A stretch of 64,000 bases of DNA from Catajapyx aquilonaris. Lineage: Eukaryota. The notes below the pieces were generated by a model that had not been told where the DNA came from, did not search any database, and saw only the letters and a program-made list of their open reading frames with translations. The stretch lies in NCBI GenBank assembly GCA_000934665.2, contig KZ538248.1:1-64000 (forward strand). The letters are read 5' to 3'. Every line of letters begins with the position of its first letter. The stretch's first letter is position 1. Shown here in pieces: positions 3,744 to 37,183 of this stretch. Position numbers and translations under genes: made by a program.

Positions 3744-3836
3744 ATGGCCGTCGACAGCAAGGAGGCCCAGAGCATCCTGGTCAACTACCTTATACTCATA
3801 GTGCTGCTGGTCATACTCTGGGTCCTTTACTTCGGG
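3744..3836 (+). CDS. scl: Sarcolamban-like micropeptide, copy 1 (first coding exon)
   Basis: ATG at 3744 encodes MAVDSKEAQSILVNYLILIVLLVILWVLYFG, followed by a phase-0 donor GGG|GTAAGT at 3837. Short polar N-terminus plus one TM helix with EAxS-L/I-x-x-N-Y, matching sarcolamban (EAKSLF) and the phospholamban/sarcolipin LFxNF core. Confidence 0.85.
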
Positions 3837-3928
3837 GTAAGTGGGTCCCCTGGGTCATGCAGTCATGCTTTTGGGGTAGGTGTCACGGGGCCGTGAAGGA
3901 AACGGTATGGTGCGACAGATCTGCGGGA

Positions 3929-4093
3929 GAAACACTTTATATCCAAAATTAGTAAGGGTGAAAGTCGCATGCATGCCCTGCACTAATCCCTCCTGAGTCA
4001 GGGGGGATTAGTACAGGGCATGCATGCGACTTTCACCCTTACTAGTTTTGGAGGTATGGTGTTTCGCCATGGGATGGCAGAGATGTATAGGTG
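3929..4093. mobile_element. Palindromic MITE family B, left end eroded
   Basis: Fold-back AGTAAGGGTGAAAGTCGCATGCATGCCCTG ... CAGGGCATGCATGCGACTTTCACCCTTACT, homologous to 12403-12576. Lies in the intron of sarcolamban copy 1. Confidence 0.8.
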
Positions 4094-7059
4094 TATTGAT
4101 AGGTTGCGTAATGTGGTGCACATAGGCCGGTAGATTTTTTTAAAAAAAATGCGAACTGGGAGTGTACCTGATTTACTTACCGAAATCGGCAAATTTGATA
4201 CGTACATTGTGCGTTAGAGTTAGTTGCGGTATAGGGCGGAGTGGGAATGAGATTTAATCAAAACTGTACATCTCACGTGACTGGTAGTGCTTTAATTTAC
4301 CGCAGAGATTACGTTCAATCTGTCAGTCTCCTTCCAACCCGTGGTTTTGAGAATTTGGCCCTTACTCCGCCCTTTCCAAAATTCCGCTTAAATTGCCAAG
4401 AATGTTCTCATGGTCACCAGAAGGGAACATTGAGCTGTTATTATGGCGTATGATTTAATAAGCTCCTTTCTGAGCACTGAGGCAGTAATTAATCCGGTTT
4501 GCTGCTGGATTTGTAGGACGGAATATCGCCCCGAAGTAAAATTTAAATTAGCATCGATTTTAATAGGCGATGACAGCCTTGGCGCAGTGTCCCAGTCCAA
4601 AACGTGTGCTGCTGCTGGTTAATTACTTACGGCGGATCTGAAAGATTGCACAGGCGCAAATGCGATGTCAGTATTGAACACCCAGTTTGCAGTTTTCATC
4701 TTTTTAAACTGGTCCGATATGTAGACAGTAACAAACCGCAAAATTATATACGAACTGTGCACCATTATTGTGATTGATTATTGATAATTCATATTGAACG
4801 TCCCCAGGCAATCAAGCTAAATAGGTCCCGTTGCAAGCAGTTCTGACCAGTAAACTGGTAAAAAAAATTTCAATATCCACATCTTGAATAGTCGTAAATG
4901 CAGCAAGTTCAATAAGGGGCGGTCGAATGATTGTATGCTAGTTGTCACAGATTGAATCGACCTTGCTTTCGCAATCTTTGGTGCCAGCTGACGTGCACTT
5001 GAGTACTCTTCAGATCGCGACATATTGCCACCTGCATCGATACAGCCAGAAGTGGCTTATGGATCTTAAAAATGGCGTACCCCATCAAAGCTTTTTTTGC
5101 TTCCCTTCCCCCTACCATCAGAGACATTTGCATGCAGTTTGGGATATGGAATTGAAAGATGGTTGCCCTTGCAGGTGTGGTAGCCTGATTGCAACAGGCG
5201 GTTTTTTGAGACACCCGGTTGTTTCTTCCTACTGGTGATGGGTCCTAGTTTGGGTTGCATTCGCTAGATGGGAGGCCCCGGCGTTTTGCGTCGATGCGGC
5301 CGTGGTGAAGATGGGATCGGATGGAGGCCTTTACGCAGAGATGTCGCCACGTGCAGCTTGGTCGGTTGTGATGCTGGGACCAAAGACTTGAGATCGGTTT
5401 TTAGTTTGTAAGATGATAATGTCGCGGGTGAACAAATTCATGCCAATATTTAGATTAATGAAATCAGCATTTGTTTGAATAGTAGTGCATATTTCTGGTG
5501 AGGAATTGTTTCCAATAATTGCAGGCTATGGTGTAAAATAATGTATTGATCACTCATTGTAATATTTTCCCACAGCAGATATATATGGCGGTTGTACTCT
5601 ATGTTGTGTGTTATTGACGACGATTTGAAAACAATTTTTGCGGATGAACCAGTTCCCCCCCCCCCCCNCCCCTCAGAGGGCACGAAAATAGATTATCCGC
5701 ATCAATGGACCACAAGGAAGGCTTCTGGGTGCGGTTCTGGAGATGAGTGGGGGTGTTGGAAACGCAGGCGAACTGGCGCCTGCTCATGTTTTCTTAACGC
5801 TATTTCTGGCAGGGGACGACGAGCCCTTTGGAGGTCATGTGAAATATTTCCTATTCAAAATTATAAGTAGGGGGCGGATGTGCGTGTTAGCTGGAAGACA
5901 TTGGTGTTGAAGCTTCTGGAGGAGGATGAGGTGTTACCAAGGGATACCATTAGTGGACGGTGGTCGTGGACAAATCAAATTCCGATCTAAACCTGGAGTC
6001 GACCTGGACCGATGCCACGTTTTAGGGCCTGGTGATTGATGAAGTTGGTGCTGAAAAGCGAATTTTTGTGGGGGACTCCTGCAGCTCAATCATGGACGAT
6101 GCTTCCTGGTCTAGGGCAATTTTGTGGGTTTACTGACGGACAGAAGAGGTCGAGCCAGGAATGGGCTGGAGTTGGAATAATTGGGGGAAAAAACTTATGT
6201 GGAACGAGAGTCCGTAAGATGCGTCAAGAACTTTGCGCAGTTACTGCCAGCAACCAATAGGAATCCCTGGGCACGTCGTTCAAGGACAAGTGATTAAATC
6301 ACGAATGTTCGCTACATTTCACATTTGCAAATACAGTGCAGCTAACAGTTCATGGCTTGGAACTTGAACTCTCATGGTTGCACCACTCACATGGCCACAT
6401 AAATGAGATATGGAACGTGCTTAATTGACCTCCCTCCCAGAAGTGATAGGGATTAACATGGCGGATAATCCCACTGGCTGACTTTCTGCGCCACGTGAAG
6501 CCTCATGTGTGCTCGTCGAAAACACGTTATATAATTAATGCAAATGACTTGGGATGCAATTAATGAGGGTGGAAATAATGGGCGTATATATAGCCAGCAC
6601 TTATCCAAGGCTTGCACCGTGTGTGCATATATGGAACGGGGGAGTTTGGGGATTCTGAATGACCGCTCCGGTTATTGCGACTAGAGATATGCTGGGTGGG
6701 ATTGTTGCTGGTGCGCCGCTTGGGAGTTTCAGCCAGCAGTGTTTTGAAAGCGTAATGTAATGCTGGACATGTCTTACATTTTTATAGGCTGGCTGGTAAT
6801 CAGCGGAGAGGGTATTGTGAGAGGAAAATTCATGCGAAGTAATTTGGGCACGCGGGCTATGCGAACATTTTGTTTAACTGTATCCTGTCTCGTGCTGCTT
6901 GAAAAATTGATGGTAGTTGAAAAAAAAGAGAGGTGTGGAGAATTACCACCATACCTACTTTATTATTCCGTATTTTGTGGGATGATAAACGTGCTTGTCA
7001 ATCAAAACTCTTAGTACTTTGCAAATTGCATTAATAGTCTACTAGGTTTTGTGTTTCAG

Positions 7060-7125
7060 AGTTCTGGATGTCGAATTTCGAAGTTTCATGTCACAGTTGA
7101 CGTAGACATGGATAGACTTTTATAG
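7060..7125 (+). CDS. Candidate second coding exon of sarcolamban copy 1 (SSGCRISKFHVTVDVDMDRLL*)
   Basis: Acceptor TTTTGTGTTTCAG|AGT followed by UTR-like AT-rich sequence. The same TGTTTCAG|AGT junction occurs downstream of copy 3. The splice pairing is inferred, not shown. Confidence 0.35.
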   Translation, partial: SSGCRISKFHVTVDVDMDRLL

Positions 7126-10100
7126 ACATTTATAGACCCACGAAATGTCAAGTAGTCGTTAAATCAAATAACCGTTTCTAAAAAGTGGGGGAAAATTTGG
7201 ACTCAAATTACAACTTTTGTGGCGAGAAGTTTTGCTTTATACTGTATATTGAAAGTGCTAGTTGTATGAGTGCGTTACAGGCTGGTTTCACTGGTTTTCA
7301 CAGCTGCATCATACACTCTTGAAGTTTATTACTGTAACCGGTAGCCTATGCGTATAGAAGAGAATTATGAACATATGGTATTTCCACCAGATTACAGTTT
7401 ATTCATAGTTACCACTTGAAACTTTCTTTTGATAAATTGGTATAGGCTGAATCGACCACTTTCAGAACTGGCCAAGCACTTGATCTAATTTGGTGGGTAT
7501 ACGCCTCCAGCACATACTTCACCACATATAACTGGGCTGAGATTTTCCCTTACTGGGTTACCGCACCAGTGTGCTTTTGGATGATTTCTCTGTAGACACA
7601 ACTATATGGGTGGGGCGAGTTATTAATTAGCCAGTAGGTGGATAATAGCACACCTGAACCCTACGGGAATATAAAGAGAAATATTATTGAGCAGCCTGCC
7701 GCATTAATATCCCTGGCGAAGAGGATATTTTGCAGGAAGGGAGGGGGGGCCTATTCATCTTCCTTTCAGCACCTTCCCACCCGCACCACCCCCTTAGGAC
7801 TTTCCGGATACCTCATCACTCACTTCACAGCAGTTGGGTATAGTTACATCACGGTAGACTAAGCTGGGAGTGTGTTCATGGACATGAAGAACCCCCTTGT
7901 ATACAATGGTCTTGCTCATCCCCCACACCCTGGACTCGGAGGATCATTGATTACTCAGCTATTCAGAGGGTAATTAGGGCAGATCCATTCAACACCATGG
8001 CATCAACATGCCAATTAGAGTTCCGGAAGGAGTCCAATCAGGTTGCCTCAAAAAAGAGCTTTTCGTGTTCATTCGAGCAGTGGTAATTTTTGGCGTATGT
8101 CAGCACGTCGACCCAAGATTTGTTCTCAGTCAAATGATGTTTTTAATGAGCATGGAACTATGCAGTTTTTGTTTTTTTTGTAATGGAGTGACACGTTATG
8201 ACAAATTGAAATGCAGGGGAGGTTTCTACTAATCGATAGCCATTTTTATAGCGTGTCGTTGAACCGGTGATTTCAAAGGCCTACATTTTTTTAAAAGCCA
8301 TCGTGTTAGCGCACAGTAGTACGCTGGGCGAAGGTTCAATGATGTTGGGTACAAAATGCCATTGTCCATTGACATGGAAGGGAGCCGTCATTATGAGATT
8401 GTGTTTTTGTCTGATAAGGTTATTTCCAACATTAACTGCAGGCATCGCGTGTAGTTTTTAGTCAGAAATTGGTATGCTTCTTTCTAGCCTTTGGGGGAAT
8501 ATAATCAAAGGTAATTCTATATGGATGTTGACTCTTTGTTTTATAAAATAATTTTAAATATGCTCTCCTGTGTGCACCCAGGAACAGCCCGAGGCTTTTC
8601 AGACGAGCGTAACAGAGTTCTGCATCCGATTTGTAATTGGAGTATTGTGTAATCTCTCTGTGCATTAGGGATATCTGAGCAGTACAAAGAGTCTTCCGTC
8701 TTGTATTTTTCTAAGAAGCTGCATATATGACAAGAAGCATTATGTTGGTTATTAGCGAGAGATAATTGGAATAAGCCGATTGCTTCGTTTGCTAGTTTTG
8801 CAGTATAAGTCTCGTTAAAGGGATTTACGTTAGAGAGTACCAATCCAATAATGAGACAGACGTCGCTTTGTAATACAGTAGGTCTACTGAAAGAAATGCT
8901 AATATGATACAACGAAAATACTGTTCGTATGGATGTTGAACTAACCCTTAGAAGAATCAGTTGAAAGCAACAGTAGCAATATATTCATTTGTGAGTGACA
9001 TTTCCGTTCTAATCAAGCTGAGCCGCTGCTTATTTTTAACTGATGGAACAATCCGGCACAATATTTTTGTGCCATTCTTCTGATGCATCAACGATCCGAT
9101 TAGCCCCCCCCCCCCCCCATAAAACTAAAACACACCCAGTAAATGCAGGGGGGGGGGTACGAATGCGGCACAAATATTAATGTTAATTAGAGAGACTTTG
9201 GGTAAACCATTGAACTTGACGCTACTAATGCCACCCCCTCTCTGATTGCTCATAATGAAACACATGACACGGTGCTTATTAAGCACGTCAACGAGTCGGG
9301 CTTCACCTAATAAATCACGTGGGATAGACCCTGTCATTAATTTGGCTGCGCGCACATGAGTGTATGTAGGCATGCTTTTGATAGATCGCCTACCGGACCC
9401 TCGATTTTAATAGGGCTTGACGCCACCCCGGTGGGAATGAAGATGACCAGGGTGTGGTATGGGAACTAAAATGACATGGGCGGAAGTCCTATCGTCGTAT
9501 CGGTCAGGTTGTGACAAACTGGAGTTGCTCGAGGTGTATACCACTCAGGCTCCGAACAGAAAATAAACAGCCTTGGCTCACATTTACATCATCCTGTCTG
9601 CTCCACATCTCAACGCCGGACACCATACTCAAGCACTTTCCAGCACATATGCAAAGCATGAAGCGCGCACATTTGGCTAGGCGTCAGAATCTGCCGAAGC
9701 CCTCTCAACCGCGCGGAATGCGTCGAAAAGTGCTACTAATTTTAGACCCCCGGCAAGTCTTTTTGATCCGCAGCAAAAACAGAACAGGCCGCTTATTAAA
9801 ATCTCGACGAGTGACGCTGGCGAAAACGTCCGTACAGTGCGCACTTGCCAACACCGGTTTCCAATTATGTGGTCAGCTAGGGCTTTTTGGGACTCCGAAG
9901 GATATGGAAATGTGCAAAATCCGTGACCGGTCGACCATATAAATATGTAGTCGGGGCAACCATCCTCGTGGGAATCCTGGTTTTTTTGGGACGAATTCGC
10001 GTAACAAAGAGCTGGTCTGCGCCATATTTGATTAGTCTGTTGTATGCGGTGGTGTCCTACGGGGAATAGTGGCTTGCATATGGGGTACCAGCGCAATTAT

Positions 10101-12402
10101 AATGCGATCTGTACACGCTGCATTAATATTGACGGTCCGGGTGTATGTTTTTTTGGGGGTTGTCAGGAGTAGGTTATTTCCAGAGAAAGACACCGGCGTA
10201 TCTGTTGGAATATTTAAATTAGATTGCGCAGATTAGCATGATGCAAGTGGATTAAAGGTCATTTCCGTAATTGTGTTTGTTTTTATGGTGCGTTCGGAAA
10301 ATGCTTAATGAGGGTAATTATTCGTGCAGGTAAAAAGCCGGGCTGCTGTACGGCGGTGCACATTAGTATTCAGGGTACCGGTTGTCCATTGTGTCAGGCA
10401 TGGGGGTAGGAACTGTATAGATTTTTTTTGGGAGGCTTATTGCAAATATGTCAACATGACTTCCACGCTATGCGGTACATAATGGGGAAATTGCTAGTGT
10501 TCAGTATATCAACTAGTGCGTTTACATACAAAGCGCATGCTTGCCTGGCATATAGAGTAACTTTTCCGATAGTGATTTTTAAAATTACCAAATGTGAATT
10601 ATGCGGTGGTGTAAAATGCATTTTATATCATCATTCTCAATATTTCACCTAATACTGTCCACGATGTTTGTTTGCGCTGAAAGTTATCTCTGCCCACTGG
10701 GTGCGCCATCTCCCTGCTTACCCCCCCTACCACACCTTCCATCACCTTCCGCTAGAGGGTGCTCCACACCCTGTCAGGTGGCGCTCATGTACAGTTGGGA
10801 TCCGGACTTTTCGCCCCCGCCGTTTCGTCCCCGGATACCCTTCCTGCGTGCCCCGAAGGTCGGTGTTCAGCTAGGAATAAGGCAGATCGAACACAGTTTG
10901 TTTCACAACATCTACTTGCCATTTTGCCTGCATTGGAAGAACATCGCTTGGGATTGGATTGGCAAATCTCATTTTGAAGGATGCATCGGCGAATTGGAGC
11001 TGTCAGATTGTCCTCTTGTTTCCGGCACGTACGTAGATGCTCCGATGTTTTCTTGGAGAAAGCGTGGTCCAGCCGCACCCTCAGGAAGCACCCCCCCCCN
11101 NNNNNNNNCCCCCCCTCCCCTCCATCTGCTCTTTATCACCCCTGAGGGAGAGCTGAAACCGAGAGCAGACTCGGGTTCCATTGCGGCTTGCGAGCCTGTG
11201 TCGTGCGGATTTTCTTGGTTGGAAACACCGCAATTTATGCTCCTGGTCGTTGCATGCGCTGCTGCTTTCTGGCTTCTGTTGGGGACGTGGATCACAGATG
11301 TGAAATGCCAATTTCGAGAGAGGGACCAGTGTATATGCCAGGTATATTGGGATTTGAAAATTTTTGTAAACAAATCTGTGCATTATGTAAACAGGAAACT
11401 ATCGAATGCTTGAAACACATTCCCAGTTGGGAACTCTGCATCGCATTACGGTATAATCGAATCCTGATTACAATAATCTTCATCCCGACGCCAGCATCCC
11501 TACTGTCCTCAGAATCAATGCATAAACTTAACCTCGCCTTTTTCAAAAACCCCGAACAGTGTAGTCCCCGCAGCGCTTGATGAAGTGTAACGCGCCCATG
11601 TTTTTGACAGCGCGTCCCAGCGATGACGCAAAGTCGTCAAGCAAAATGCACATTGACGCGCGGGAAATGATGGCAGTGATGGAAGCCCGTGCGGACCGCC
11701 GAGGACATTATCAGTAATTCATAGACATAGCTTTATTTTATGCTTCGTCAGGTTTTATTGGGCTCGCCCGTATTTTCCTCAGCGGAAAAAACCTTCAGCG
11801 CCACCAAGCCTGAGGTGGGTTTTATTCTCTGCAGTTACTACGTACGGGATGGATCTATAAAGCAGCATTTCTACTACATGTATTTGTTTCACCTACGAGT
11901 TACGACTCGTATATGCACATATTGAGCGTATGCATGATTATTTTTTATTTTGCAGCGGATTACTTGGAAACATGACGACCGTGACCCCTGGTCGTTGATG
12001 GGAACGCCTAGCCCGCGAAGTGCGCAAATAAAAATCGTAAAACATGGAAACACTCTCCCGTTCCGTAGAGCCACGGATCTAAATGGCCCACTAGGCTCCT
12101 GCTGCACTCTTTTTTCTCTCCGTTCATATATTGCTTCCCTCTGCACTTGCAATTTAGGAACAACGGTGCGGCTTTATGCGGAAACAAGTGTACTGGGCGA
12201 AAGGTTTTTTCGCCCCACCTGTTTAACCCTCCTGCGTGTGACATGTATATGCTCCAGAATTTTTTTTGTGGGGGTTGCGAACAGCATGTCTTGTACGGAT
12301 GCCAACCGCTGGACTTGGCACCGCTACGGATACTGGTTTTTATTTATTTTTTTCATTTAAAAATATGGCGGAACGTGATAGTCATGCACAGTGCTTCGAA
12401 TG

Positions 12403-12576
12403 CACCCCAATACTGCCTTCCCATGGAGAAACGCCGTATCTCCAAAACCAGTAAGGGTGAAAGTCGCATGCATCCCGCCTGACTCAGGCGGGATTAGTGC
12501 AGGGCATGCATGCGACTTTCACTCTTACTGGTTTTGGAGATATGGTGTTTCTCCATGGGACGGCAGAATATCGGTA
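12403..12576. mobile_element. Palindromic MITE family B
   Basis: Long inverted arms CTGCC.TCCCATGGAGAAAC.CC.TATCTCCAAAACCAGTAAG.GTGAAAGTCGCATGCAT and reverse complement. Boundaries are approximate. Confidence 0.82.
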
Positions 12577-15500
12577 TATCCCGCGTGTGAATTGGATCTC
12601 GCCTCACGCACCTCGGGGCGATTAAATTAACTTGAGGGTCCCCCCTCTCTTACCACCCGGGTCCTAAGCAAGACGCTGTCCGGAATTAATTCGGTGGCAA
12701 GTTGGGAGAGGGGGGGCAGGTGGAGATTCCGGAGGCAAGTGGCTGGTCCATACAGTTCGGAGGGGTCATCTGGGGAAGGGGAGCGAAAGTGTCGCCTCCC
12801 ACAGGATTCGTGTGGGACATTGGAATGGGGCCTAAACGGAATCCGCGGATCGTTCCGGTTGATTAGGTCCAGCAAGCATTCCTGTCGCGCAGGTGAGGCT
12901 CGTAGGTGTTGCATTGGATAGAATGCTGAGCAGGCGTGGGGAAGAGAGGGGCATAAAGAAGGAATTCTATGAGGAATTCTATATTGGGGGGGAATTTTTG
13001 GCTCGTCTCTAATGTCTGGCAGTTGAAACTGGTTGAGGTAAACATCTTGAGTGAGGCAGAAAGTTGAGATTGGGGAGTAGAAAATTAGAGGTACATGGTA
13101 GTTGAATTTACATGCACGAGGCACAGTCTGGGGCTGGTGGAAAATCGGATTTTCTTTCTGAACTACTTATAAATGATTTGGGTTCTTCTGGGAGTTGTGC
13201 ATTCAGGTCGGTACTGTACAGTTTGGGGGGTAGTAACGGTGCTGAATATTGATAAGCGTAGTATGTACTGCAAGCAAACATGCCATAACGTAACTCTCGG
13301 GAGTGTTAACGGGGTCAAAGGATGCATATACGGCTTTCTTTGTTTCATGGTCTGCATGCGATATGTTTTGTACAATAGGCGGGTCCGGAGCTACCGAGTG
13401 CGAAATTTTGGCCCAAGTTGCAACGAAGAGTAATTCAGGCGGCCAGGTGTTTCGCGCATATATCATATATGCAAGCCAAAAGTTTTCCAGATGGAGTTGC
13501 AAAAGCGAGGGAGGGAAGAATTCATGCTAATGCAAACATCTGGTCCGAATTTGTGCTGCGGTATGGTAATTGGGCCGTTTGAAAAATTAACATACTGTGC
13601 GCTGCTGCTAACAAATTTGGCATAATACAGTGGTTATTGCCAGTTTCTGCTGGGCGAATATGGAAGCCCGTGGTTTCGGAGACAGCATTATGGGTAAATG
13701 GAATCGAGGTACGGACAGGCCTAATTTTATATGGTTTAGAGCCAGGCGATATCCAGGAATAATTATCCGGCGGGTTTCCTTTCGGGTGGAAAACCTTTTG
13801 CTAACCTCAGCACCGCTTTTCACGCCGGCTCGTATTGGCTGCAATTAGCTTCAAAGTCACCGCAATTTCCATGGCGACCCGCCCCGTTTAAGATTAGTGG
13901 CAATTGTCGTCGGCGACTTTTGGTAGGGCGGTAGGGAGGGAGGGGGGGATGGCCACTTTATTCCGACGTCGTCTGCTCCATTTGTCTCGTGGTAAAGCAT
14001 TGTCGTTCGTTCTGCAGGGCTGACTTCTGCGGAAACGGAGTTTCACGGCCTTTGTTACGAGATGAGGTAGTGTGTGTTGCGGGCGTTGCAGGATGAGCCG
14101 GTACGAAAAGCCGTGTGTGTATTTTTTACGTGTTTATGTTGCACGCAGGAATGCTTCGAGCTTGCTAACAATAACAGGTGTACGTGTCTGTGCACACTGT
14201 TCCGGTTGATGAATTGCGTATGAATATGCTACCCGCTGCACTACTGTACCGTATATGAAATGTAGGATTTATTTTTATAATTGTTCTGAAACAACAGGTT
14301 AATGTTGCTTTTATTACGTTATTTCATCGAATGTAATGCTGCCCACGCGTAAGTTATATAGAGTCCAGCCTGGTATTCATACTTTGCAGATTACGTTTCA
14401 CATTGTAATTAAGTGTCACAGTGCACGATTCATCCGTGTAATGAATTCGGGCAGAATGACGGACTTTACATGTAATTATACTCGACGTATTATAATTGCG
14501 GAATAGGATTGTTGCGAGTTATAATTGAAAAGGTTCCTTTGACTGACATGGCAGCTTACAAGGAACTGTAACTGTCCAAAGTTTAAGCCTGCTTGACTTT
14601 TGTAGTTAGCTCGTCGCCTGCGGGCTTTCACCGTACAGTACATCGCCAGCAAAGTGGTCACACGTTGCGAACAGTTGTAATCCATCTTGAAAAGCAGCAT
14701 GGGCCGTCGATTCCGACATCATTGAAGGCAGACGTGAAAAATTGAGATGAAGCAGTTCAAATCATCCATCACTTCTCATGCGTGACGAAGTTGCTGGGAG
14801 ACTCCCACGCGACATTCTCAGACCAGGTTTGGAATTACAGGAATTCCTCAGCACCGGCGCTCGGAGGAAATTCCATGCACATTACGTGGGAAAACAGAAG
14901 ACCTGAGGTGTACACCTTGGGTACGACTGGTGCGTGTCATTTACCCATCAACAATTTGGAATTGATGAACATGAGCCTACAATGTGTCTGTTCAATTCGG
15001 AGATTTATTTGTTTGTTTACATATTATTTGATTACTGCTGGGTGACTTGCCAGCATAATGTCAGTGGGTGTGTGCTTCAGTAGTGGGTGTGGTTATGGCT
15101 TGGCTTAACCTTCGCATTTTAATGTTAATATAAAAATGCGCGTTTTATGAGCAGTGGGACACGTCATATACCCTGATGCCAAAGATATCAAAAGAGGGAT
15201 GCTCATTAGGTATGAACTCTATTTGAGGCTTGCCCAGGAAGGAGACGCTGATGAAATGACAGGGGTTAGGTACCGAAATAAGTTCGTCTGGGATTTGGAC
15301 TCGATTCCGAACCAATGGGAGGTCAATAAGAGATGGAAGACAAGTAGACAACGCCATGACAGGCGGTGCCAACCATCACTCTTTTTTTTTCTTCTTAAGC
15401 CGTCCATTGTGTGGCAGGTGATGCTTTGCTTTTTGACACTGACGTCACAAATTGGCTGCAAGTACTGGTCGTCACCTATAGAGTTCGAACCAGTCTGGTC

Positions 15501-15582
15501 GTTGAAGAGATCTGAACCTCACTTATTTGTTTTGGGTGGTATAACTCAGGTGTTTTTTTTTGTTGGTCAATTGTCTGCAATC

Positions 15583-15678
15583 ATGCCGGCGCAGGAACCT
15601 CAGCACGCTTTGGTGATGAATTACCTGGTGATCATCCTACTGTTGATTGTGCTTTACCTCTTGTGGATTTCCCTGTAG
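15583..15678 (+). CDS. scl: Sarcolamban-like micropeptide, copy 2 (complete, 31 aa)
   Basis: MPAQEPQHALVMNYLVIILLLIVLYLLWISL* aligns without gaps to copies 1 and 3 from NYL onward. A donor GG|GTAAGC lies at 15712, 33 nt after the stop. Confidence 0.8.
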   Translation: MPAQEPQHALVMNYLVIILLLIVLYLLWISL

Positions 15679-18421
15679 GAGGTCATGCCACAAGAGGAGC
15701 TTGTTATGCGGGTAAGCTCTATGTTTGAATAGTTACAGTGTCGACCAGGAGTTGATCGGATTAACAGTAACCGATTCATTTCCAGTGCTAATACCTGATT
15801 CATTATGGAGTCAGCAAGTTTTTGTTCTTCGTGACCTATAACCGCCACATTTAAAGGAAAAAAGGGGACGATTGATCTTTGTGACGATAGCGGTGGCTTT
15901 GCAGAATAATGGTGGGCCAATACCACTGGTACCATGGTTTTACGACCGCACATTTTATGCAAGGTGTGATTAGGCTGACTTTTTTTTGGGCAGTGATCGA
16001 ACATTTGTGTGCTCATGACCGATAAATGGCCGATCGATTTTTGGCTGTAAAATTGAACAGGTCGAAATAGAGGTCGGATAGAGACATTGCAATTTTTACT
16101 GGTTTAAATTATCTACATGACAGTTCAGTGTTGTAAAGGGAGGTTACTTTTGGAAAGCTTGCAATTCTCTGGCTATGGCTGCAGGGAAATGAGGGGACAT
16201 ATGCCTGCATAATGGTGACAGACCATTTGGAGAGAGAGAGAAAAAAAACGGTGTGCTCAGCAGGTTTATTGGCTGGTTGGGCAACCCAGGTCAAAATGTC
16301 GTCCGACATTGTAGAAAAGGTCATAGCAATTGCCCCACTTTTCCAGCAGGGGGACCTTCCCGGATTGGATCCGGCGTCTCAATTATGCGCCTAAGTACAC
16401 GTAATTAAGTTAATTGAACCGCCAGGGGTAATGGAGGGTTGGTCCATTGGGGTGAAAAAATGGCAAGGAGTCTTTGGTTAGCGTTTCCTTGGCGTTGGTC
16501 CGGACACCATTTTGGCTGGCAGGCCGAATTTGAAGAAAAAAAAAAGTATGGATACGTATAACTTGGCTTGACATACTTGATTAATGAGTTTAGGCTGGCT
16601 GTTCCGCCTAAAATTAGCTGTTTGGCAAGGGGTTTGACGCGTGGAGTTACCGTGATTGCCAAGTGTAGAATTATCTGATAGTGTTAATTTGCATTAATTT
16701 TGGAAGCCAGGTATATATTTTTTGGGCAAAAAAAAAGAGACTTGGGCTTATCTGTGTGGACATGCGAAACGAGGGGTTTGGTGTGATTCGGATGTGGATA
16801 AGCAGGCAGGGAATAAATTCAACGGGACGTTAATGATTCTTTTATGCTGGGTGCTGGAGAGATTGGCTTTACCTTTCCTGGAGATATGTTCTCGTCAGTA
16901 ATTTGGGTTACGGTTGTAAATGCAGCTGGTGCACTGAATTTATTTTTATGAATGGTCGGAGTAGAAAATGGATGGCGATAAAACCGTGCCATTATGCCGT
17001 TCTGAACTGGGTACTTTCGATATGCTCTATGCATTGGGGGGGGAGGGGGGGGAGCTAATTATTTAAGAAAGGGGGGGTTTTGAAAATGTGTCACGGTTTA
17101 AGGGAAATCGATAGCTGGATGTTTACTGTCTGGGGTAATACGGGGGGGCGAATTATAAATTTTGCCTGGAAGCATCGGTGCCATTTTTTGGCGTGTATAT
17201 TACTACAGTAATTTTATGGCCTACAGCGGACAAGGGGGGGGGGGGGGCAAAATTAGTTTCGTAGGGTACTGTTCGTAGGCTGTAAATATTGCATTAGGAT
17301 TGTGCGCTGGGTAAGGCAACAGTGCTTAATTGATGAAATGGATGATCAAATTTGAAATGGTTACAATCCCCGAGGCGTTTTCTAACGCCTCTTCAACTGG
17401 TGTAGGATAACATGGAGTCAGTCAGTTGACCTAATTATTGTAAAGGTCACTTTTATCGATAACTACCTAACTAGCCTCTTCGACCTCATTACCTGTGGTC
17501 GCTCTTAATGGGATTTGTGTTAGGTACTTGGGTCAAGGCAAGGTATAAATCAATTTGGTTGACTTGTTTGCCAAGCAGTGTGTACAGGGGCTCCTGTAAC
17601 GGAGGTTAGGATCAATAGATCTTCCTCATCGCAGCCAACAGAGACAAAGGCCTAAAATGGCCCCGGGGCGATTTTTAATCAGGCCTCAGCGTCTAAAACC
17701 ATTGTCGTAAACTTTGGGAGAATCTATTCCTGGATGAGTTGGCACAAGCCGATTTCGCGAAAGCATTGCTCCAGATGTCGGTCCCCAGAATGGACGCCAC
17801 CCACTTTGGCACAACCCATTCGAAAGATCCATTTTTTATTTTAGCAATGCAAATTTCCAGATGGTAGTAAAGGGAAGGATTTTTTTTTTTTACAGTGTAG
17901 ATAGACCGCGATTACGGACAAAATTCGCATAAAACTTCATCACCTCTCCAAAAAACTGCATGGGTTGAAAAATGGGGAGAGCCATGTTGAGTTTTGAACC
18001 TTAGGGATTCGAACCATATTTTCAGGGGAAATCAGGTAAAGTACGCCAATTTAGACGATCAGGCGCTAGGCGCGACGGATTTACTGCGTAATCTGGGGAC
18101 GGGATTTGATGCATGATCGTATTTTTTCTTCTCTTCAGGCCCTTTTTTTCCACCCCTCGCGATTGATTGGACGAGACGCTGTAAATCTTGAAGACATTGT
18201 TCGTTACTGGTGCACCTGCTTCCAAGGAGGAGAAGGAAATGCATGAGTCTGCGATTTTGAATGCTGATAGACTCAATCACGAGGTAGTAGGATTATGAAT
18301 GTATACAGATGATGGATCTGATGAATATTGGCAATTTACCGCAACTTGGGTGACATATTGGGAAACGTGCATCGGTTGGCAATGTCGCTGTTTTTTTCAT
18401 GTGAATAGCAGTTATTCTGTA

Positions 18422-18858
18422 CAGTGTTGGATATTAATCGAGTCATACTGCTTGCGACATTTTGTGATGCGGCAGAACTGCCGTCAGATATGAGAAGACC
18501 GTAACTCAATGTCCACTTCCCCTTGCGGCGAGAAAAAAGCAGTGGTACCAAAAGCACCCGACAGGTGCAGTTGGGATGCCGTTCCTTTTTTCCCCCTTCC
18601 CTCAACGCCACCTCTTGGCTGCTTTCGGTAACACTTGCTTTCTTTTCTCGCCGCAAGGGAAGTGGATAATGAGTTACGGTCCTCTCACATCTGACGGCAG
18701 AGAAGTGCATCGAAGCCGTTCGAGTAAGCGTAAGTAGGCCTTGGGTGACGTCACCCAAGGGCTACCATTTCTTACTCGCACGGCTGGCACTTCAGTTTGC
18801 ACGTCTGCCGCATCGGAAAATGTCGCTAGCAGTATTACGGAATCAATGTCCACCACTG
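18422..18858. mobile_element. MITE family A (Tc1/mariner-like, TA TSD), interrupted by a nested element
   Basis: TA|CAGTGTTGGATATTAATCG ... CAATGTCCACCACTG|TA, homologous to the copies at 30272, 43191 and 44832. Confidence 0.85.
18478..18700. mobile_element. Nested non-autonomous DNA transposon with a 4-bp TSD (AGAA)
   Basis: Inverted arms of about 58 bp, CTGCCGTCAGAT.TGAGA.GACCGTAACTCA ... TGAGTTACGGTC.TCTCA.ATCTGACGGCAG. AGAA occurs at 18474-18477 and 18701-18704. Removing the insert restores the family A sequence. Confidence 0.85.
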
Positions 18859-19421
18859 TACCAATAGGGCACAGTCATTCCACAACAGTTGAAACAATTT
18901 GGTTTAATCGGAGCTTGCAATCATATCGGTCCCATGTCGAAAATAATTCCCAAGCCCCCCAGGGTAGCAAGCGTCTCCAATGGTCACTTTATCCTTGACA
19001 TGCTTTTAAATTATCCAATAACATCGGAGGGGGGGTGGAAATGATATGAAAGATTAATGGCATATTCCGAGGGATTAAACTGCTGGCCAGTGTGATACCA
19101 ACCCTGGAGTACCGCCAGTAAATTTGCTTTCGGATCACATTAATCCTTCTGCAGGAGTGATTCTTAATTAATGAACTCCTCTTGGATTTAGATCTGCAAG
19201 TTTTTTCCCTCCCATGAACCCAGGTCACATAGTATCCCGGGTCCAGGGTTTATCGTCAGCCATCATTATTATTTTGGCAGGATCCACTCGAATCATTGGC
19301 CAGGGATTATCTGACGTGTGACTTGAAATAGTGCTGGGCAAAAGTTAAGGCACCACTTAACGGCCCTCCTTGAATGGTTTATAGCTCGGCGGGGAAGAAA
19401 CTAGGGGGAAGCTTTATTTCC

Positions 19422-19532
19422 TATATAAAGCAGGCGGAATGCGGTCATAGACGTCTCTAGCGACGCTGTCAGACGCGATTAACACGACGACGCAGCGTTC
19501 GGGAGGAGCAGAACCCCCCCATTTCGAGTAGG
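19422..19532 (+). promoter_or_regulatory. Candidate TATA promoter and non-coding first exon, possibly of sarcolamban copy 3
   Basis: TATATAAAG at 19422-19430, then about 80 nt of CpG-rich ATG-free sequence ending in the donor-like AGG|GTGAGA at 19533. Confidence 0.35.
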
Positions 19533-22500
19533 GTGAGATACGTGGGTTTTCCATCCTCTTGGCTGTTCGATAATAAATTATGGAGTCCGCATCTTGTGCT
19601 ATACGGGGCTATCTTGCCAAATCCTCTTCACCTCGGACCCCAATCAGTGTAATGGAGCTTGAAAAAACCGGGTTGAAACCCGCCTTTTCTTATAGGTACA
19701 CAAAGGAGCGCGCGTTTTATGAAGGGTTGTAAAGAAGTTGGTTTACGAGGCGGACAGAGTTTGCGGGTTTAAAAGATTCGGTTGGTCTCTTTGGAGGGTT
19801 AATTGGGCTTAATGTGGCACCGCAATAATGGTGATTGCTGGTGGGCAAAAAAAAATTATTTTGCTGTGCAGAACAGTTATTGACAAAGTTGTATACGTGC
19901 AAAGTGGGGGATTATCCTGTGTGAAATGCTGTGTATAATTGGGGATTTTTCAGTAATTTTTGTTGTTGATAAAACTGAGTTGATTTCTTCGCGGGGAGGT
20001 CGTTAGGTTAATTGCATTTAACGTGCCTGCACAATAATGGCTGATTACGGCAACAACAAATATTGAACTCGCTTGTTTGCGCCATTACTTTGCCGCACCA
20101 TTGCGATGGGTTCCAAAATTTTGATCGTAGATTTTTGACTGTGGAAGTATCAGAGGTATTCAGGGAGCGGTCATATTCACACAGGCCAACATATTAGACA
20201 TAATTGCATCACATCTGTTGGCGCAAAAAAAAGTGCCCGGTATAGGCAGAGGGCGAAATTGGCCAAAATCGGAACCGTTTATGCCGACCACATGTGAAAG
20301 CGGCTTGCTGTAGTTGATTAACATTGACAACACTACCTGCAAATTATATGGCGGCGGGAGTGATTTTACATGCTGGTAAATCGCATCTCCAAAGTGACGT
20401 ACCCCTCATAATTACCGTGGCTTACATTAGCAATGTCTTTATTGCGTTATAATGTCCACAGATGCTGTTTCATGGGAGGATCATTAATGGCATATTCCGA
20501 ATGTGCTAACTGGTTTATAAGCAGTGAGTGGAGCGAGTGATGGGGGTGTTGTAATTATGGAGAGATATGTTGGGTTATCATTATGGAGGTTTATTTACTT
20601 GGAAATGAATGGTTGTATTATTTGGGATGGCGATGAAATTGATTGTTAACAATGTATGGTCTCATGCTTGATTAAATTTGGTTATGTTCGGTGTTGAAAC
20701 TGCAAATTTCATTTTGATGTAGGACTGTACGGCATGGTGTTTATTACAGTGCTGATTAACTTGCGTCTTCCTTCATCTCTGACTACCCCTTATAGGGAAA
20801 TGTCGTGATGGTATTGTTGTTGTTTACAGTGCTGGTTCATGGACATTATGAAACTGTGGATAAGAGTTTTACCCTAGAAATACAGTTCTGGCCGTATCTT
20901 CTAGGCAGGGATATGTGTAGTACAGACTCGAGTGCATTTGGTGATTGGATGGTCCCTCATAAATAGAGTTTAAACATCCAAATCCTTCCGTCGAAGCCCT
21001 GCCACGAGGGTAACGCAAAGCCACAATGTTGTACGACCTTTGTAAACATTGACAATGCGACGGATTTAACGAGTCGGACACAAACCTGTAATCAAATCAT
21101 TCGAATGGGGTCGTCGATTTGGAAAATGTTAAGTGCACTTGAGCGCCAAGCGGTGACATCCCCCCTACCCGCACTCAACGCCCTCTAGGCATTGTTTTGG
21201 CACTGCGAATGTCGTCTTGAAACATCGCCTAATTGGCTGACGGTCCACTCAAATGGCGGTGAACATGTCATAGGGTAGGGACCCAAGATCAATTCGTTCA
21301 ATTTGTTGTGTAAACAGTGTGTATGTACAGTATAGCCCAAATTATATCGACAAATCTTTCAATTTATGAGGAGACTAGTTCCTCCTCCCATCCACCAGAG
21401 GCGCTGCCTGTGCCCATTGCGCAGTCGCAGAAGGGGGCCGATCCTTGGTCATACAAAGAACTCGTAATTTGGATCAGCTTACGTTCAGCCTATTCAAGAC
21501 TGTCCTTAGGTCCAGTTTCTCCTTCGCTCTTGTATATATAATGGGGAAGTGGACCGAGCTTTGCATCTTTGTCTCCAAGATCTCATCGTAGCCGGACCAC
21601 TTGGCATCAGATTGTTAATACCGTCTTCCTAATGAGTGCCACTACAATGCAATTACCTTCTCAGATTGCTCCCACTCGAAATGCTGCGAACAAAGGCCCC
21701 CTTGGTGTTCTACGTGGAAGCTGACTATAGGAAAATCACACAATTGAGCTGGACGAGAGTTGATTAGACGCGGCGCAAGCAAAGGGGAGGATGAGTTTCC
21801 TCCAAAGTCCTGCTTCTGGTGTTGCCTAAAAGCCAAGAGATTTCTCCTTCCTGGCGCTTCCGTCATGCATGGGAATGAAGGATGCTTTCCGGGGCTGGAG
21901 CACCCTCAAAATGCGACGTGGAGGAATTGACAACAGAGGATCCTCCCGCGGGAATGTCAACAAGATGTGCACTGCCTGCCTTCTACAATGCGTAAGCCGG
22001 ATCGTAGTCTCATTTTGCGAGACTATTTCTGGCCGTGTCCTAGCACACCGTATGGGCTTTTTTGTATGGAGCATATCCTCCGATGTGAGTTTGTGTTGGA
22101 GGTTTTCCAACCGGAGCGTATTTATACAGCGTTTCCTTAGGAGTCTGTGAATATGGGCACTATGCAGATCCCAAATATCGTGCTGTAAAAAAAAATATCT
22201 TCGTAGACTCACCTAAATATGTCCCATTCCAAACAAAACTGGAAGACACTGAAGCCGCTAATAATTGGCCAATCTTTTACGACTTCAGCAAATGAACGAA
22301 CGTGGTGGCTGCAGTTTGAGTTCGTGGCTGAAAATCAGGATTACATGCTCTTCATGTATATAAGCAGATTTGTAGGCATTAGCATGCTTTTAATGTTTTG
22401 CACGTCCGCTCACGTTCCTTTGTGGAGGGTATTCGCGAGGTTTCAGCAGAAGCAGTTCTAGAGTGACAAGTAATGTTCCGATTCGTGCAGTGAACCACGA

Positions 22501-25500
22501 ATATGCCTAGTCCACATGAAAGGAGGCTTATAGCTCATTTACAGGATCAAGCTAGGAACTCCAATATTGAGGTGATGTAACGTCACAAATGTGGCGAGTG
22601 ACGCGAATGCTGATACTCGATCTGGGTACAAGATTATGAAAGGGATGGGACCGTAATTGTCAAGGGAATTGTGTCAGTAATGCTTTTGGTGGTCGTGTTA
22701 AATAATGCCCATGTCACCCAGAGCAAAAAAGCAGACCAAAATTTGCACAAATCCAGTTTCGATATGTTGACGTTACGTCCAATGACAGCATCATTACTGT
22801 GACATTGGATTTGTGCAGTTTGGCATACGTGGGGGCTTGGATGTGTTCCAATTTGATACGACTGGTTATTGCATTGTCGATGACCATACCACATGATAGT
22901 TGCAAATGATTAGGAATTTTGACAATTTGCTGAATTTCATTTAAGAAACCGCCAAAAATACCTGGCCATAAACAAGAAGGGCGGTAAAATTAGCAGGTTG
23001 TTGTTCATATCTTGAGACCTTGACTAGTGTGGAAAGGTCCTTGTCGGGTTTGGCAAACCCCAAGAGCTGACGATTTGTCTTAAAAAGTTTTCTGCTGCGT
23101 GGGTTTCTGGTTCAACGTGTGGGTGGACATACGCCCGGCGGAATCAAAAGCATAGTCGTCGGAATTATTGCGTTTAGCCCTGCTCCATAATGCATGATTC
23201 CTGTCTAGGGAAATCGGGGCGTTTGACGAGCGTCCTGAAATTGAGTTTGAAGCTTTTATGTGGACTGATTCGCATTTTGGACGGGGGTGGCATGGGAGTA
23301 AGCTCCCTATAGAAACTTTTAGAGGGAAAGTAGTTGCGCCGAGAGTTCGTAGTTGTATGAAATAAAAGGATACGTTTATAGCCATGTGATAAAGTGGGTT
23401 GTACAGTGTATGGGTTTGTGAGACATGCCCCTGGTTGAGGCTAAACCTCATGTCTTTTTGAGTGGGAGTCAGATCTAAGGAGGATATCCATTACAATGTT
23501 AAGTAACTGGAACATGGACCTAATTCAGGCGCGGATCTGAGCTCAATCGATTGGTTGCAGTCGATATGGACGATGATGAGAGGCGTGGGTTTGACGGGTG
23601 TGAGGCATTAAACTATGTAATTAGACCGCTGGATCCGCCTAATTATGTGGGAATTTGTATGGGTCAGCCATTTTGGGCCACCGGGGAACGGGTGACCGCA
23701 TAACAGTGCGCAGTTTGAGCGAAATTAATTATCATTGGGATTTGGCCATTTACATCAGTGCATTTTTTTTTTTTGAATGGGCCAGTCAAAATGAACGTCT
23801 GCTTGAGCAATCATGCGGTAGATATTTCGTAGGAATGGAACCTATTTGCGGGTTTACGTTGCGAAATGAGGGAATGCCATTGGCTTGCTTGCTGCAACTG
23901 AAAGGGAATAATAATAGGACGGCACCTGTGTGTGATTGCTTCATGGCATGTCAAAGTACATGCTGTACGCAGTTGGCTATTTCTGATGCTCTACAGAAAG
24001 TCACCGCTGCTAATTTGCAGTGAAAGATTGTTATTGCTGCAAGATATATGAACAGGTTCACATTAGTGTTGATCGTGCAGAGACATCTTGAGCTGACCCA
24101 TTTCATTCAGTAATTTATAGGCTAACTTTAGCAATGTCGACTAATGCTTGGCCACCGAGTTTGCCCACGCGACAAACTCGTAGAGAAAGCGTAATCTCAT
24201 TATAGTACTGTCACAAGGGAATGTTCGTGCATGCTAAGTACTTGGTTTCATGCCGTAATTTGTCATCATGCCCTGGGATAATTGTAGCAGTCAACTTCAT
24301 TTCGGTCAGTCAAGATTTTTGTACGTTAATGAGCTTACATGCCCAATCCTCCTACAATAATATGCATTATGAATTATTATTCCGATACCTACGTATGATT
24401 TGTTAAAATGTAAGTTATTTAAAAATGGCGGATAATCACTGCTCCTGCTTGATTTTGCATCTCTGGACTGAAAATGATATCTCGACATCTTGCGCTTGGT
24501 CTGTTGAAACCCTCAATCTTCATAAACGCTGGATGCAACCCGATGCAACTTGTGCTGGCTAAAATTTCTGGAGGTACACGACACTCGAGAACAGAAGCCT
24601 GTAATTACCTTTCATTTCAGGCATAATTATGAGGGTGACACATTTAAGGCGTCTCTTTAATTATTCATAGTCAACCATTAAAAAGGGACGCAAGGGAAGG
24701 TTGGTTTTCCGGCAAGATTGTGCGCTTAATTAGTCAGCGGATGGACCTGCTGTTACTGCATTAGTTTTCCCTAAGACTGAGAAAAGGTATGGGAAACAAC
24801 AAGGTAACGTAGTACCGCATGCGCACTGGGTACTCATTTTCAAGGTGATTTATTGCAAGCAACGCTTGTACTTAACTCGAAGCCGAGCCCTGTAATGAGA
24901 AATGCAGAATTAATGCTTATGGAATTGGACCATTTGCGCCGCGTAAATATTGCGGGGGTTTGCGGAGAAAAACTAATTAGAGCGAATGTTGCCCAGTACA
25001 GAACATGTGTGTTCCAACTGGAGCATACACATTGTACCTCGAGCTGGATTTTTGTGCATATAGCCATATTATTAGCGACATTTTGTTCCAAGTCTAGCAC
25101 TTTGTCGTCACCAGTTAGTATTAATAGAGCTATTTGGCTTCAGGGCACAACCAGGAATACACTGTAGCTTGCGAAGAATGCAAACAAGACATTAAAATGC
25201 GGGTTTCTTGAGAAAGGGGACGTCCCTAGAGGAATTCTTGGCTGGGGAAGAATGAATGGAGGTGGTGTCCGAGAAACACTTAGACACGTTACCGGACCTT
25301 TTAGCTGCCGGGTAATCGATGGCACAAAGGCAAGGTTAGTTCTGCGGGGCAACTAGTCACACCAGCCAAGAACAATGGGTTACAAGGCCGCCCTTAATTA
25401 ATCAAGCGACACAGACACTGATTTACGGGCGGGAGACTTGCCCGCTGCTTCTGTGTAATTAATTCCACAGTTCGTAGTTTACGTTTACGAGCCGTATTTT

Positions 25501-27226
25501 TCATCCGTGGATGAAGAATGGGGTAATTACAGTTTTTTTTTTTTTTGCATATTTGCTCCTGATTGTTGTTTTTTGGAGTAGGGCGCGATACAGCGAAAGG
25601 GAACGTATGCAATGGCACGTTTTGTGAAAATTATAAGGTCTTTGGGTTTGAAACATGATTTATAATACCCCCTGGAGGGTATGATGTGAATTGGGCACCT
25701 CTAGCACCGTATACGTTTTCATAACTCATCACGAAAGCATGGATGCATGAAAAACGATTGGAGGAAACGATCCGAACTCGGCCAGTCCACCCTTCCCCCC
25801 CAAAAAAATTATTCATGGAGAAAATGGCATGTTTAAAAAAAGTTGGGGGATACTTCACCGTGAATAGGAAGAAGTTTTCTGCTGGCCCAAGCCCCCCACA
25901 TAAATCGAACTGTTGGGTGGGCTACGGCAGATGCACACCTTCAAAGTTGAGGTCCTCTTTGCTGAAACATTAGAAGGGGGGCAAGGCCTTTATTAGCGTT
26001 TGGCCCCTATCCAGGCACTTCCCATCCGGATTCTGGCAGGACTGTTGCCAAACCGGCACCTTTTCCCCACTAGCTTAATTAGACACGAGTGTACAGTACC
26101 CTCCTTTTCCGCTGCCGATCCGATTATTTGGCGGAACACTTGGACACTGATTAGTGACGTCCGTATAGGGGTCATCCTGCAGTTGGTGCGTTATATGTTG
26201 CGGATGGGGATTAAGCTTGGTTGACGGTATAATCGGAGGTGTCAGGATGCTGATGAGGATTTGCAATGTTGTAATTATAGGGTTCCGATGACTGTGCTGG
26301 AGCCAAACTTGGTAGCGAAAAAAATTTATTCGCCATAATGTGCAAAAGTGACATTAAATGCGTATGATTGCACTCTCTGGTGCGTGTAATGGCTGCCTAG
26401 CTGCATTATATTATTTACGCACCAAAAGAACAATAAACAACAAGTTTTAGAGGTTGCTACAATTTAAAGTGGGAAATATGTTTGTTTATTATATCTGCGC
26501 ATTGCTGAGATAGCCAGATAGCATGATAATGGATTCTGTTTGTGCAAAACAATAATGCATGTTGATTTAGCTATAGGCTTGCAGAGCAGTGCATTGCCCG
26601 CTTGTGCAAGCAGAAGCACTCTATACATAATAAACCGTATCTATGACTTGATCAGCATGTCAGTGCACCACATTAACGAAGCGTACAGGGGAAGTGGTGG
26701 CTACACCAAAAGCAATTGCAAGTCATATTAAATATTCAGGCATCTTGCAGTATTTAATTCTGTGCATAATTTATTGCAGACCAACAACATGCTCTGATTG
26801 CTTCAGTATATATAGGTGTGTGATTGCACTGCTGCGACACCAACATACGGTGACGTTCAGAGGTTAAAGACCAGAGTGTTTTTCACATCAAATATGACGA
26901 ACGATCGTGGCGTGTCGTCCTTAAGAGCGCCTTTTTATACATAGATATATGGGCGTAGTTTATGTTGGATGCAGTTATAGCATAGGCGTGGGTGTCCATG
27001 AGGATCCATGGCGAAGAGGGACGAGTAAACTCTTGGGGTGCGGATTTATCCAAGTGAAAACATTCACCATATGCTTGAGGTTTACGTAGGCGGGCTGTTA
27101 AATTATCAAGGGATCGGCCCAGGGTTTCTTTTGAGCCGCCATCGTCAGTGAATGTCAGGGCGGTTCACCGGACGGAAGGTGTCCGATGTGTGACGGTGCG
27201 TAGTATCGGAGAAAATTTAGTACACG

Positions 27227-27319
27227 ATGAGCGATCTGAACCGAGAAGCCAAGTCCTTGTTCATTAACTACCTGATTTTGGTGGTTTTGCTCGCCATTCT
27301 CTGGCTGCTGTACATGGGG
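27227..27319 (+). CDS. scl: Sarcolamban-like micropeptide, copy 3 (first coding exon)
   Basis: MSDLNREAKSLFINYLILVVLLAILWLLYMG, then a phase-0 donor GGG|GTAAGT at 27320, the same codon position as in copy 1. EAKSLF matches insect sarcolamban and LFIN matches phospholamban. Confidence 0.88.

Positions 27320-37181: not shown

Positions 37182-37183
<2 letters not shown>

Follow-up and report, generated by a model that had tools for sequence, protein, structure and literature searches.

In muscle and heart, micropeptides that regulate SERCA determine how fast relaxation proceeds and how large the calcium load is; those of vertebrates count among the disease genes. Sarcolamban (SCL or SLB) is the invertebrate counterpart of sarcolipin and phospholamban, and peptides of this kind act as a brake on the muscle calcium pump, SERCA, in flies as well as in vertebrates. 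In Drosophila two sarcolamban open reading frames (ORFs) lie on one transcript. To our knowledge, what is known of the invertebrate members comes mainly from Drosophila and from three arthropod peptides that have been tested. Here we describe a stretch of 64,000 nucleotides from Catajapyx aquilonaris (GenBank assembly GCA_000934665.2, contig KZ538248.1, positions 1 to 64,000 of the forward strand; hereafter the window), which carries a tandem, co-oriented cluster of four short ORFs. We consider it quite probable that these are four separate small genes for tail-anchored, single-helix micropeptides of the sarcolamban family.

The tested SLBs comprise 33-45 amino acids in the account of a preprint by Bak et al. 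(10.1101/2020.07.19.211243), and Drosophila sarcolamban has been published as a peptide of 28. The same preprint text reports that SLBs inhibit SERCA1a in proteoliposomes and places them, by modelling, in the groove that M2, M6 and M9 line; it also describes long and short forms that coexist, the long ones carrying candidate phosphorylation sites. Myoregulin, endoregulin, another-regulin and DWORF are further partners of SERCA, each a small peptide with a single helix specified by a small ORF (names as given in PMC9338278). None of these four was returned by any of our searches, and their sequences were not directly compared with those of the window. Judged by title and the beginning of the abstract, none of the papers listed by a full-text search for sarcolamban reports multi-copy clusters or members outside arthropods, although Magny et al. 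2013 may list more arthropod sequences.

Unlike the Drosophila gene, the window holds four separate copies over 28 kb, all on the forward strand and all with a purine at position -3 of the ATG. The first copy, c1, starts with the ATG at 3744 and consists of a first coding exon of 31 codons (3744..3836; MAVDSKEAQSILVNYLILIVLLVILWVLYFG); its last codon is GGG, the frame is open at the 3' end, and a predicted phase-0 splice donor, GTAAGT (3837..3842), stands directly after the Gly codon. Copy c3 is built in the same way, with a first coding exon of 31 codons (27227..27319; MSDLNREAKSLFINYLILVVLLAILWLLYMG) that ends on GGG with an open frame and is followed, in phase 0 and at the conserved position after Gly, by a predicted GTAAGT donor (27320..27325). 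The other two ORFs are complete: c2 (15583..15678) has 31 codons (MPAQEPQHALVMNYLVIILLLIVLYLLWISL), the last of them a CTG that ends at 15675, followed by TAG at 15676-15678, and c4 (31928..32056) has 42 codons (MPPREERRGSMIPPSETGNIFVTYGILIFLLLALWLVYSTLT) and a TAA at 32054-32056. The distance from ATG to ATG is 11,839 bases between c1 and c2, 11,644 bases between c2 and c3, and 4,701 bases between c3 and c4.

An earlier note on this DNA, made from its letters alone, had proposed a cluster of three co-oriented ORFs of about 31 codons, some 12 kb apart, with a shared NYL pattern and with GTAAGT after the same Gly codon in copies 1 and 3. The positions and peptides of these three agree with that description letter for letter, and the two donors are where they were said to be, but the count rises to four. 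The additional copy, c4, emerged when c1 or c3 was compared with the window by tblastn, giving a match at 31961-32041 (+) with E-values of 1e-4 to 2e-4; its score is on par with that of c2, and the next matches in the window have E-values of 0.05 or higher. The NYL pattern and a motif scan had both skipped c4 because it has Thr at the position where c1-c3 have Asn, so that the pattern holds for three copies and fails for the fourth. Copy c4 further differs by a longer N-terminus with an RRGS site. A fifth copy was not found: when a hidden Markov model (HMM) of the four copies was run against the 2243 six-frame ORFs of the window, the next best ORF scored 8 bits (E = 0.29).

The four peptides share one layout, in which a short polar, cytosolic N-terminus leads into a helix. 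Towards the cytosol this helix has S-L-x-x-[N/T]-Y, towards the lumen it has an aromatic-x-x-aromatic pair (WLLY, WVLY, WLVY or YLLW), and a luminal tail of a few residues closes the chain (FG.., ISL, MG.. and STLT for c1 to c4). With 31 or more, 31, 31 or more, and 42 codons, they lie in the size range of sarcolambans (28-45 residues) and pair a short, polar N-terminus with a single membrane helix at the C-terminus. Sarcolambans are likewise tail-anchored single helices, in which a Lys marks the cytosolic edge of the helix and W-L-L-Y lies towards the luminal end. The hydropathy of the 19-residue core is 2.5-2.9, among the highest in the window. An AlphaFold2 model of c4 consists of a helix over residues 16-41 and coil over residues 1-15, with pLDDT values of 94-97 for the residue blocks within 21-40.

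The correspondence with characterized sarcolambans extends to individual residues. In the bumble-bee SLB, the Lys at the helix edge is Lys9, and the luminal stretch reads Trp26-Leu27-Leu28-Tyr29 (10.1101/2020.07.19.211243). All five of these residues are present in c3 under the same numbers (K9, W26, L27, L28 and Y29), and c3 would reach 33 amino acids with two more residues. The remaining copies deviate to different degrees, c1 having Q9 and W26-V-L-Y29, c4 W-L-V-Y and c2 Y-L-L-W. For Drosophila SCLA and SCLB, the luminal ends are given as YLIYAVL and YAFYEAAF (PMC9338278), and their aromatic-x-x-aromatic arrangement, with a short tail behind it, is the same as in the window peptides. As among the described sarcolambans, a long form (c4) and short forms coexist in this cluster.

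ORFs as short as these invite the suspicion that they are chance hydrophobic frames without function. We weigh them against a profile built from 50 cores of database relatives only, with no window sequence included. Among the 2243 six-frame ORFs, this outside profile picked out exactly four, namely c1 (E = 1.3e-15), c3 (2.6e-15), c4 (1.1e-10) and c2 (3.8e-6), with the next-best ORF at E = 0.86. The recovery of c4 is independent, because c4 was absent from the query with which the relatives had been gathered. Only five further non-overlapping open segments of 31 residues, counted over six frames, have a core hydropathy above 2.2. These results, the 49 significant relatives described below, the confinement of conservation to the ORFs and the clean controls leave chance with a negligible probability. 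We regard the four ORFs as real, non-random genes.

The earlier note had also held that the flanking DNA of the copies looks unrelated, and this is borne out. In an ungapped comparison of c1 and c3 in bins of 30 bases, identity is 20/30 and 24/30 over the ORF and donor but 4-13/30 in every bin outside them, and it falls to background exactly at the ATG and directly after GTAAGT. Self-tblastx of the window links the units solely through the c1 and c3 ORFs (65.5% over 29 amino acids) and through repeats resembling miniature inverted-repeat transposable elements (MITEs), and it revealed no further stop-free paralogous exon. Self-blastn returned 30 repeat pairs, and among these only MITE-like elements connect the units. 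Over 24 aligned codons, c1 and c3 differ 10, 3 and 14 times at codon positions 1, 2 and 3, with a proportion of synonymous differences (pS) of 0.77, which is saturated, and a proportion of nonsynonymous differences (pN) of 0.24. A paucity of second-position changes is in part expected for any two helices rich in Leu, Ile and Val, and for c2 versus c4 pN is about equal to pS; because of these two points, the codon pattern is strong for c1, c3 and c4 alone.

An exhaustive profile search of 1,835,955,588 representative proteins yielded 49 relatives at E ≤ 1e-3, of which six reach E ≤ 1e-10 and none reaches E ≤ 1e-30; a word-index protein search with c3 (as a 40-codon reference) and c4 gave no candidate. 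All relatives but P0048 (48 of 49) fit the pattern, as first written, of [NT]-Y, ten residues and [WYC]-x-x-[YWFT]. Their alignments contain a near-invariant Leu-Leu and Leu-Trp inside this span, which in most cases is flanked by E-x-x-S-L-x-x in front and x-[G/N/S] behind. Free-standing relatives of 32-53 amino acids exist. In the predicted proteins P0001-P0006, which are relatives of c1, the sequences are wholly different before the Met and after 'G-V-S', and we therefore regard the conservation as bounded at the ORF. One relative, P0016 (214 amino acids), has two family helices of the T-Y type about 45 residues apart, each with a Met before it, which hints at an organism where two small ORFs of this kind share one frame inside a stretch of about 200 bases.

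Each window copy has its closest kin outside the window. The highest core identity within the window is the 65% shared by c1 and c3, and the best identities outside are 0.96 for c1, 0.62 for c2, 0.77 for c3 and 0.62 for c4. The nearest kin of c1 are P0001-P0006 (core identity 92-96%), and that of c3 is P0005 (77%). Copy c2 is closest to P0009, P0025 and P0044 (58-62%), with which it shares the unusual Y...W order and an end of the form LYLLW-x-SL, and c4 is closest to the T-Y group of P0039, P0040 and P0049 (62%), the T-Y form being found in six relatives. The presence of such kin for every paralog implies that the four types would predate the divergence of the library organisms and that each has been kept. 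Together with the saturated pS and low pN, this supports the proposal of the earlier note that the expansion is old and selectively maintained.

It could still be that the family is real and one or more of the copies, most likely c2 or c4, is decaying and no longer expressed or functional. Copy c2 has no Pfam match and the weakest profile score, while in c4 Thr replaces Asn, and the Gly and in-ORF donor that most relatives have are missing. Both, however, are intact from ATG to stop, and what looks aberrant in them recurs elsewhere, the Y...W order and SL end of c2 in P0009, P0025 and P0044 and the T-Y of c4 in six relatives. A dead copy should moreover have lost its frame by now, because synonymous sites are saturated. 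We thus hold decay to be very unlikely and treat all four as maintained members of the cluster.

The position of the GTAAGT donor in c1 and c3 recurs across the family. In 31 of the 49 relatives, V[SRKN] follows the conserved x-[G/N/S] exactly at this position, as read-through of a GT(A/N)(A/C)G-type donor in predicted proteins would give. A further 12 relatives end at most six residues past it, with tails such as FD, YTG, YLI, F, FW, LL and MF, and these look like the products of spliced messages. Three of the remaining relatives are of the c2 type at this point, and three run on otherwise. Taken together, the V[SRKN] residues and the short tails indicate that a phase-0 intron, conserved in the family, lies a few codons short of the stop, as predicted from these protein sequences. 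In c1 and c3 the intron would interrupt the ORF two codons past its final aromatic residue, and the last one to about six residues would come from a second exon.

Donor-like sequences are also found behind the two complete ORFs, a GTAAGC (15712..15717, +) located 33 bases after the c2 stop and a GTTGGT (32059..32064, +) located 2 bases after the c4 stop. The former may be the family intron, now in the 3' untranslated region, and the latter could represent the same intron in the same situation. Six bases past the c2 stop lies a second ATG (15685-15717), from which the frame reads MPQEELVMR and then GTAAGC. The start of this short frame is loosely like the N-terminus of c2 (MPAQEPQHALVM), either as the remnant of a partial duplication or by coincidence.

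Acceptor-like AGs are located directly upstream of c2 (15548-15549) and c4 (31899-31900). If the c1 donor were joined to the first and the c3 donor to the second, both junctions would be in frame and stop-free, and the four ORFs would be exons of two genes, c1+c2 and c3+c4, for two-helix proteins of about 80 residues; P0016, with two family helices in one predicted protein, offers a precedent. This arrangement is nonetheless highly improbable in our view. Copies c2 and c4 each start from an ATG of their own, with a purine at -3, and each has a separate polar N-terminus, like the relatives of 32-53 amino acids, 12 of the 49 relatives end 1-6 residues past the Gly, and the other 48 relatives do not have two helices. 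The two acceptors were also chosen post hoc, and their pyrimidine tracts are weaker than those of three of the four acceptors in an Aurora-type kinase gene of the same window. Four separate genes therefore remain the preferred reading.

The family to which these peptides belong was assessed with Pfam, for which the cut-offs are 27 bits for Sarcolamban (PF21898), 25 bits for Phospholamban (PF04272) and 26.4 bits for Sarcolipin (PF05366). Sarcolamban is the top match for three of the four window copies, with 26.6 bits (E = 5.2e-6) for c3, 23.4 bits (E = 5e-5; profile positions 2-27 of 28) for c4 and 18.5 bits (E = 0.0017) for c1. The Sarcolipin model matched c3 at 14.3 bits (E = 0.035), and Phospholamban matched none of the four even at E ≤ 10. 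As a control, the 40 most hydrophobic other open 31-residue segments of the window were scanned; none matched any of the three families at E ≤ 0.1, and the two weak matches obtained were both to unrelated families. When the 53 sequences of the full alignment (four window peptides and 49 relatives) were scanned at E ≤ 0.01, Sarcolamban matched 19, Phospholamban three, Sarcolipin one and ROH1-like one. Of 24 relatives scanned singly at E ≤ 0.05, 12 matched Sarcolamban, five Phospholamban and two Sarcolipin. Two relatives, P0040 (27.7 bits) and P0016 (27.5 bits), pass the Sarcolamban cut-off, and P0043 is best on Phospholamban (20 bits, E = 4.6e-4; positions 13-46 of 52).

Sequences in the PDB point in the same direction. 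With c3 alone, sarcolipin came first (E = 0.12 and 0.45), with Asn placed on Asn and Trp on Trp. The full alignment returned phospholamban as its top match at E-values of 0.25-1.1, and was replaced for this search by a trimmed family profile of 18 sequences. With the latter, eight PDB sequences were matched at E ≤ 10, six of which are phospholamban (E = 0.0038 to 0.31), and the family Asn falls on the Asn of LFINF. Sarcolipin (PF05366; PDB codes 1jdm and 3w5a) belongs to the same 31-residue class as the short copies, and the Asn of its LFLNF and its Trp23-Leu-Leu align with N14 and W26-L-L of c3 in HMMER. The match to c3 is weak, however (E = 0.12; 14.3 against 26.4 bits), and the RSYQY luminal tail, which has been called integral to inhibition by sarcolipin (10.1101/2020.07.19.211243), is lacking in the window peptides. 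Phospholamban (PF04272; PDB codes 1n7l, 1fjk and 1zll) resembles the family through the profile match at E = 0.0038 and the aligned Asn.

Several observations weigh against the assignment. None of the window peptides reaches the Sarcolamban cut-off, c3 falling just short of it, nor the cut-offs of Phospholamban and Sarcolipin; c2 has no Pfam match, and 10 of the 24 relatives scanned singly have none at E ≤ 0.05. In the search with the trimmed profile, two designed repeat proteins tie phospholamban at E = 0.0038, a value they reach solely by adding four weak repeats, and sarcolipin is not in the list of matches. Two acceptor scans for exon 2 of c1 and c3 produced weak candidates only, for example at 8804 (YKSR) and 35429 (YSALGKNL), and there is no SERCA gene within the 64-kb window. 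More generally, short hydrophobic helices can resemble each other by convergence, and the SERCA groove also binds non-specific peptides, as the preprint notes (10.1101/2020.07.19.211243).

Part of this evidence would also suit a different account, namely that the ORFs encode genuine conserved single-helix micropeptides whose partner is not SERCA but another P-type ATPase or membrane complex, and that their likeness to sarcolamban reflects shared helix composition. The scores below the Pfam cut-offs and the 10 relatives without a Pfam match speak for such an account, and the partnership with SERCA is itself drawn from analogy. Composition alone, however, fits poorly with the 40 equally hydrophobic controls, none of which matches the three families. 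The matches are also position-specific, with Asn falling on Asn, Trp on Trp, and the K9 and W26-L27-L28-Y29 of a SERCA-inhibiting sarcolamban present at the same numbers, and two relatives pass the Sarcolamban cut-off. We consider a partner other than SERCA unlikely. On the profile, motif and control evidence, the view that the cluster consists of new members of the known sarcolamban family is supported. The attribution to this family in the earlier note thus stands as regards the top Pfam match of three copies, the control segments, the bumble-bee residues of c3 and the phospholamban match at E = 0.0038, although not as regards the strength of the individual window peptides, which lie under the cut-off.

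On the model of sarcolipin, phospholamban and the sarcolambans that have been tested, we infer that the four copies are transcribed and translated, and that each peptide would be tail-anchored in the membrane of the endoplasmic or sarcoplasmic reticulum. The helix would dock in the SERCA groove of M2, M6 and M9, with the Asn and the W-L-L-Y stretch as putative key contacts, and docking would lower the apparent Ca2+ affinity of the pump. Use of the four copies in different tissues is plausible; the MEF2-type motif YTAWWWWTAR is not enriched in the window, with eight matches against 7.3 expected.

Copy c4 stands apart in its N-terminus. It alone among the window copies has an R-R-x-S site upstream of the helix (RRGS, residues 7-10), and five of the 49 relatives have RRRSS at a similar distance, so that in c4 and these five an RR(R)S(S) site lies 13-20 residues before N/T-Y. 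The kinase site of phospholamban precedes its Asn in much the same way. Three of the five RRRSS relatives (P0024, P0031 and P0043) match Pfam Phospholamban at a whole-sequence E ≤ 0.05 with one stretch passing alone, P0049 matches only as a whole sequence (E = 0.034), and P0022 does not match. Because of the longer N-terminus with RRGS and of the RRRSS relatives that match Phospholamban, we propose c4 as a candidate phospholamban-like, kinase-switchable member, which would be phosphorylated by a basophilic kinase such as PKA, and phosphorylation could relieve inhibition. Unlike phospholamban, c4 has Thr instead of Asn, a shorter N-terminus and no Cys-rich zipper, and its N-terminus is coil in the predicted model, whereas that of phospholamban is a helix.

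The window as a whole has a G+C content of 45.2%, 20 N and an observed/expected CpG ratio of 0.83, a ratio that suits an invertebrate animal and speaks against a vertebrate; Rfam and tRNA scans of the window were empty. Two protein-coding loci on opposite strands are located downstream of the cluster. The first encodes a RING-finger protein and is represented by its G+C-rich initial coding exon (37592-38011, +), which is matched by several Pfam RING models at E of about 1e-8 and which we take to resemble LNX/PDZRN-type ligases. The second, just downstream of this exon, is an Aurora-type Ser/Thr kinase gene (40855-42146, -) with at least four exons and short introns; the Pkinase model matches at E = 1e-16 to 1e-18, and the named matches are Aurora. 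A comparison of an exon of this gene with longer proteins gave 565 matches with about 65-78% identity, from plants, protists and three arthropods. Introns in the window are of the spliceosomal kind; their donors resemble GTAAGT and their acceptors read (T)nCAG. An ORF at 52508-52933 had no Pfam match at E ≤ 0.001.

Several repeats are scattered over the same DNA. By self-blastn, a family of about 270-290 bases, with copies in both orientations and 72-92% identity, occurs between genes (30269-30533, 43188-43477, 44829-45099, 36585-36799, 18745-18861 and 18419-18477); its members look like MITE-type foldback elements. A palindromic family of about 155 bases has two copies in both orientations with 82% identity, at 12413-12567 and at 3926-4081, the latter lying 90 bases past the donor of c1. 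Directly upstream of the RING-finger exon is a (GA)n/(CT)n microsatellite (37170-37243), broken by a run of N at 37234-37243. The arms of an inverted repeat of about 125 bases (58258-58383 and 58561-58686) are 74% identical over 42 amino acids when translated.

The main points of interest of this locus are the cluster of four paralogs, the phospholamban-like c4 and the conserved intron predicted before the luminal tail. Short sarcolipin-like copies (c1, c2 and c3) beside a long phospholamban-like one (c4) raise the speculative idea, to which we give a modest chance, that tandem duplication in invertebrates split a constitutive from a phospho-switchable brake on SERCA, before or independently of the split between sarcolipin and phospholamban, and that the intron may permit the tail to be swapped by alternative splicing. 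If true, such a swap would concern the luminal tail, the part described as cleaved by neprilysin in flies (PMC9338278). The intron position also provides a handle for annotation, many gene predictions in the library (31 of the 49 relatives) apparently reading through into the intron. The locus offers four diverged natural variants in one genome, one of them with a phospholamban-like kinase site, and the analysis adds a family alignment of about 50 representatives and an intron position that would mark where the luminal tail begins. Together, the variants, the alignment and the intron position amount to a natural mutagenesis series that may help to define which residues of helix and tail set the strength of inhibition.

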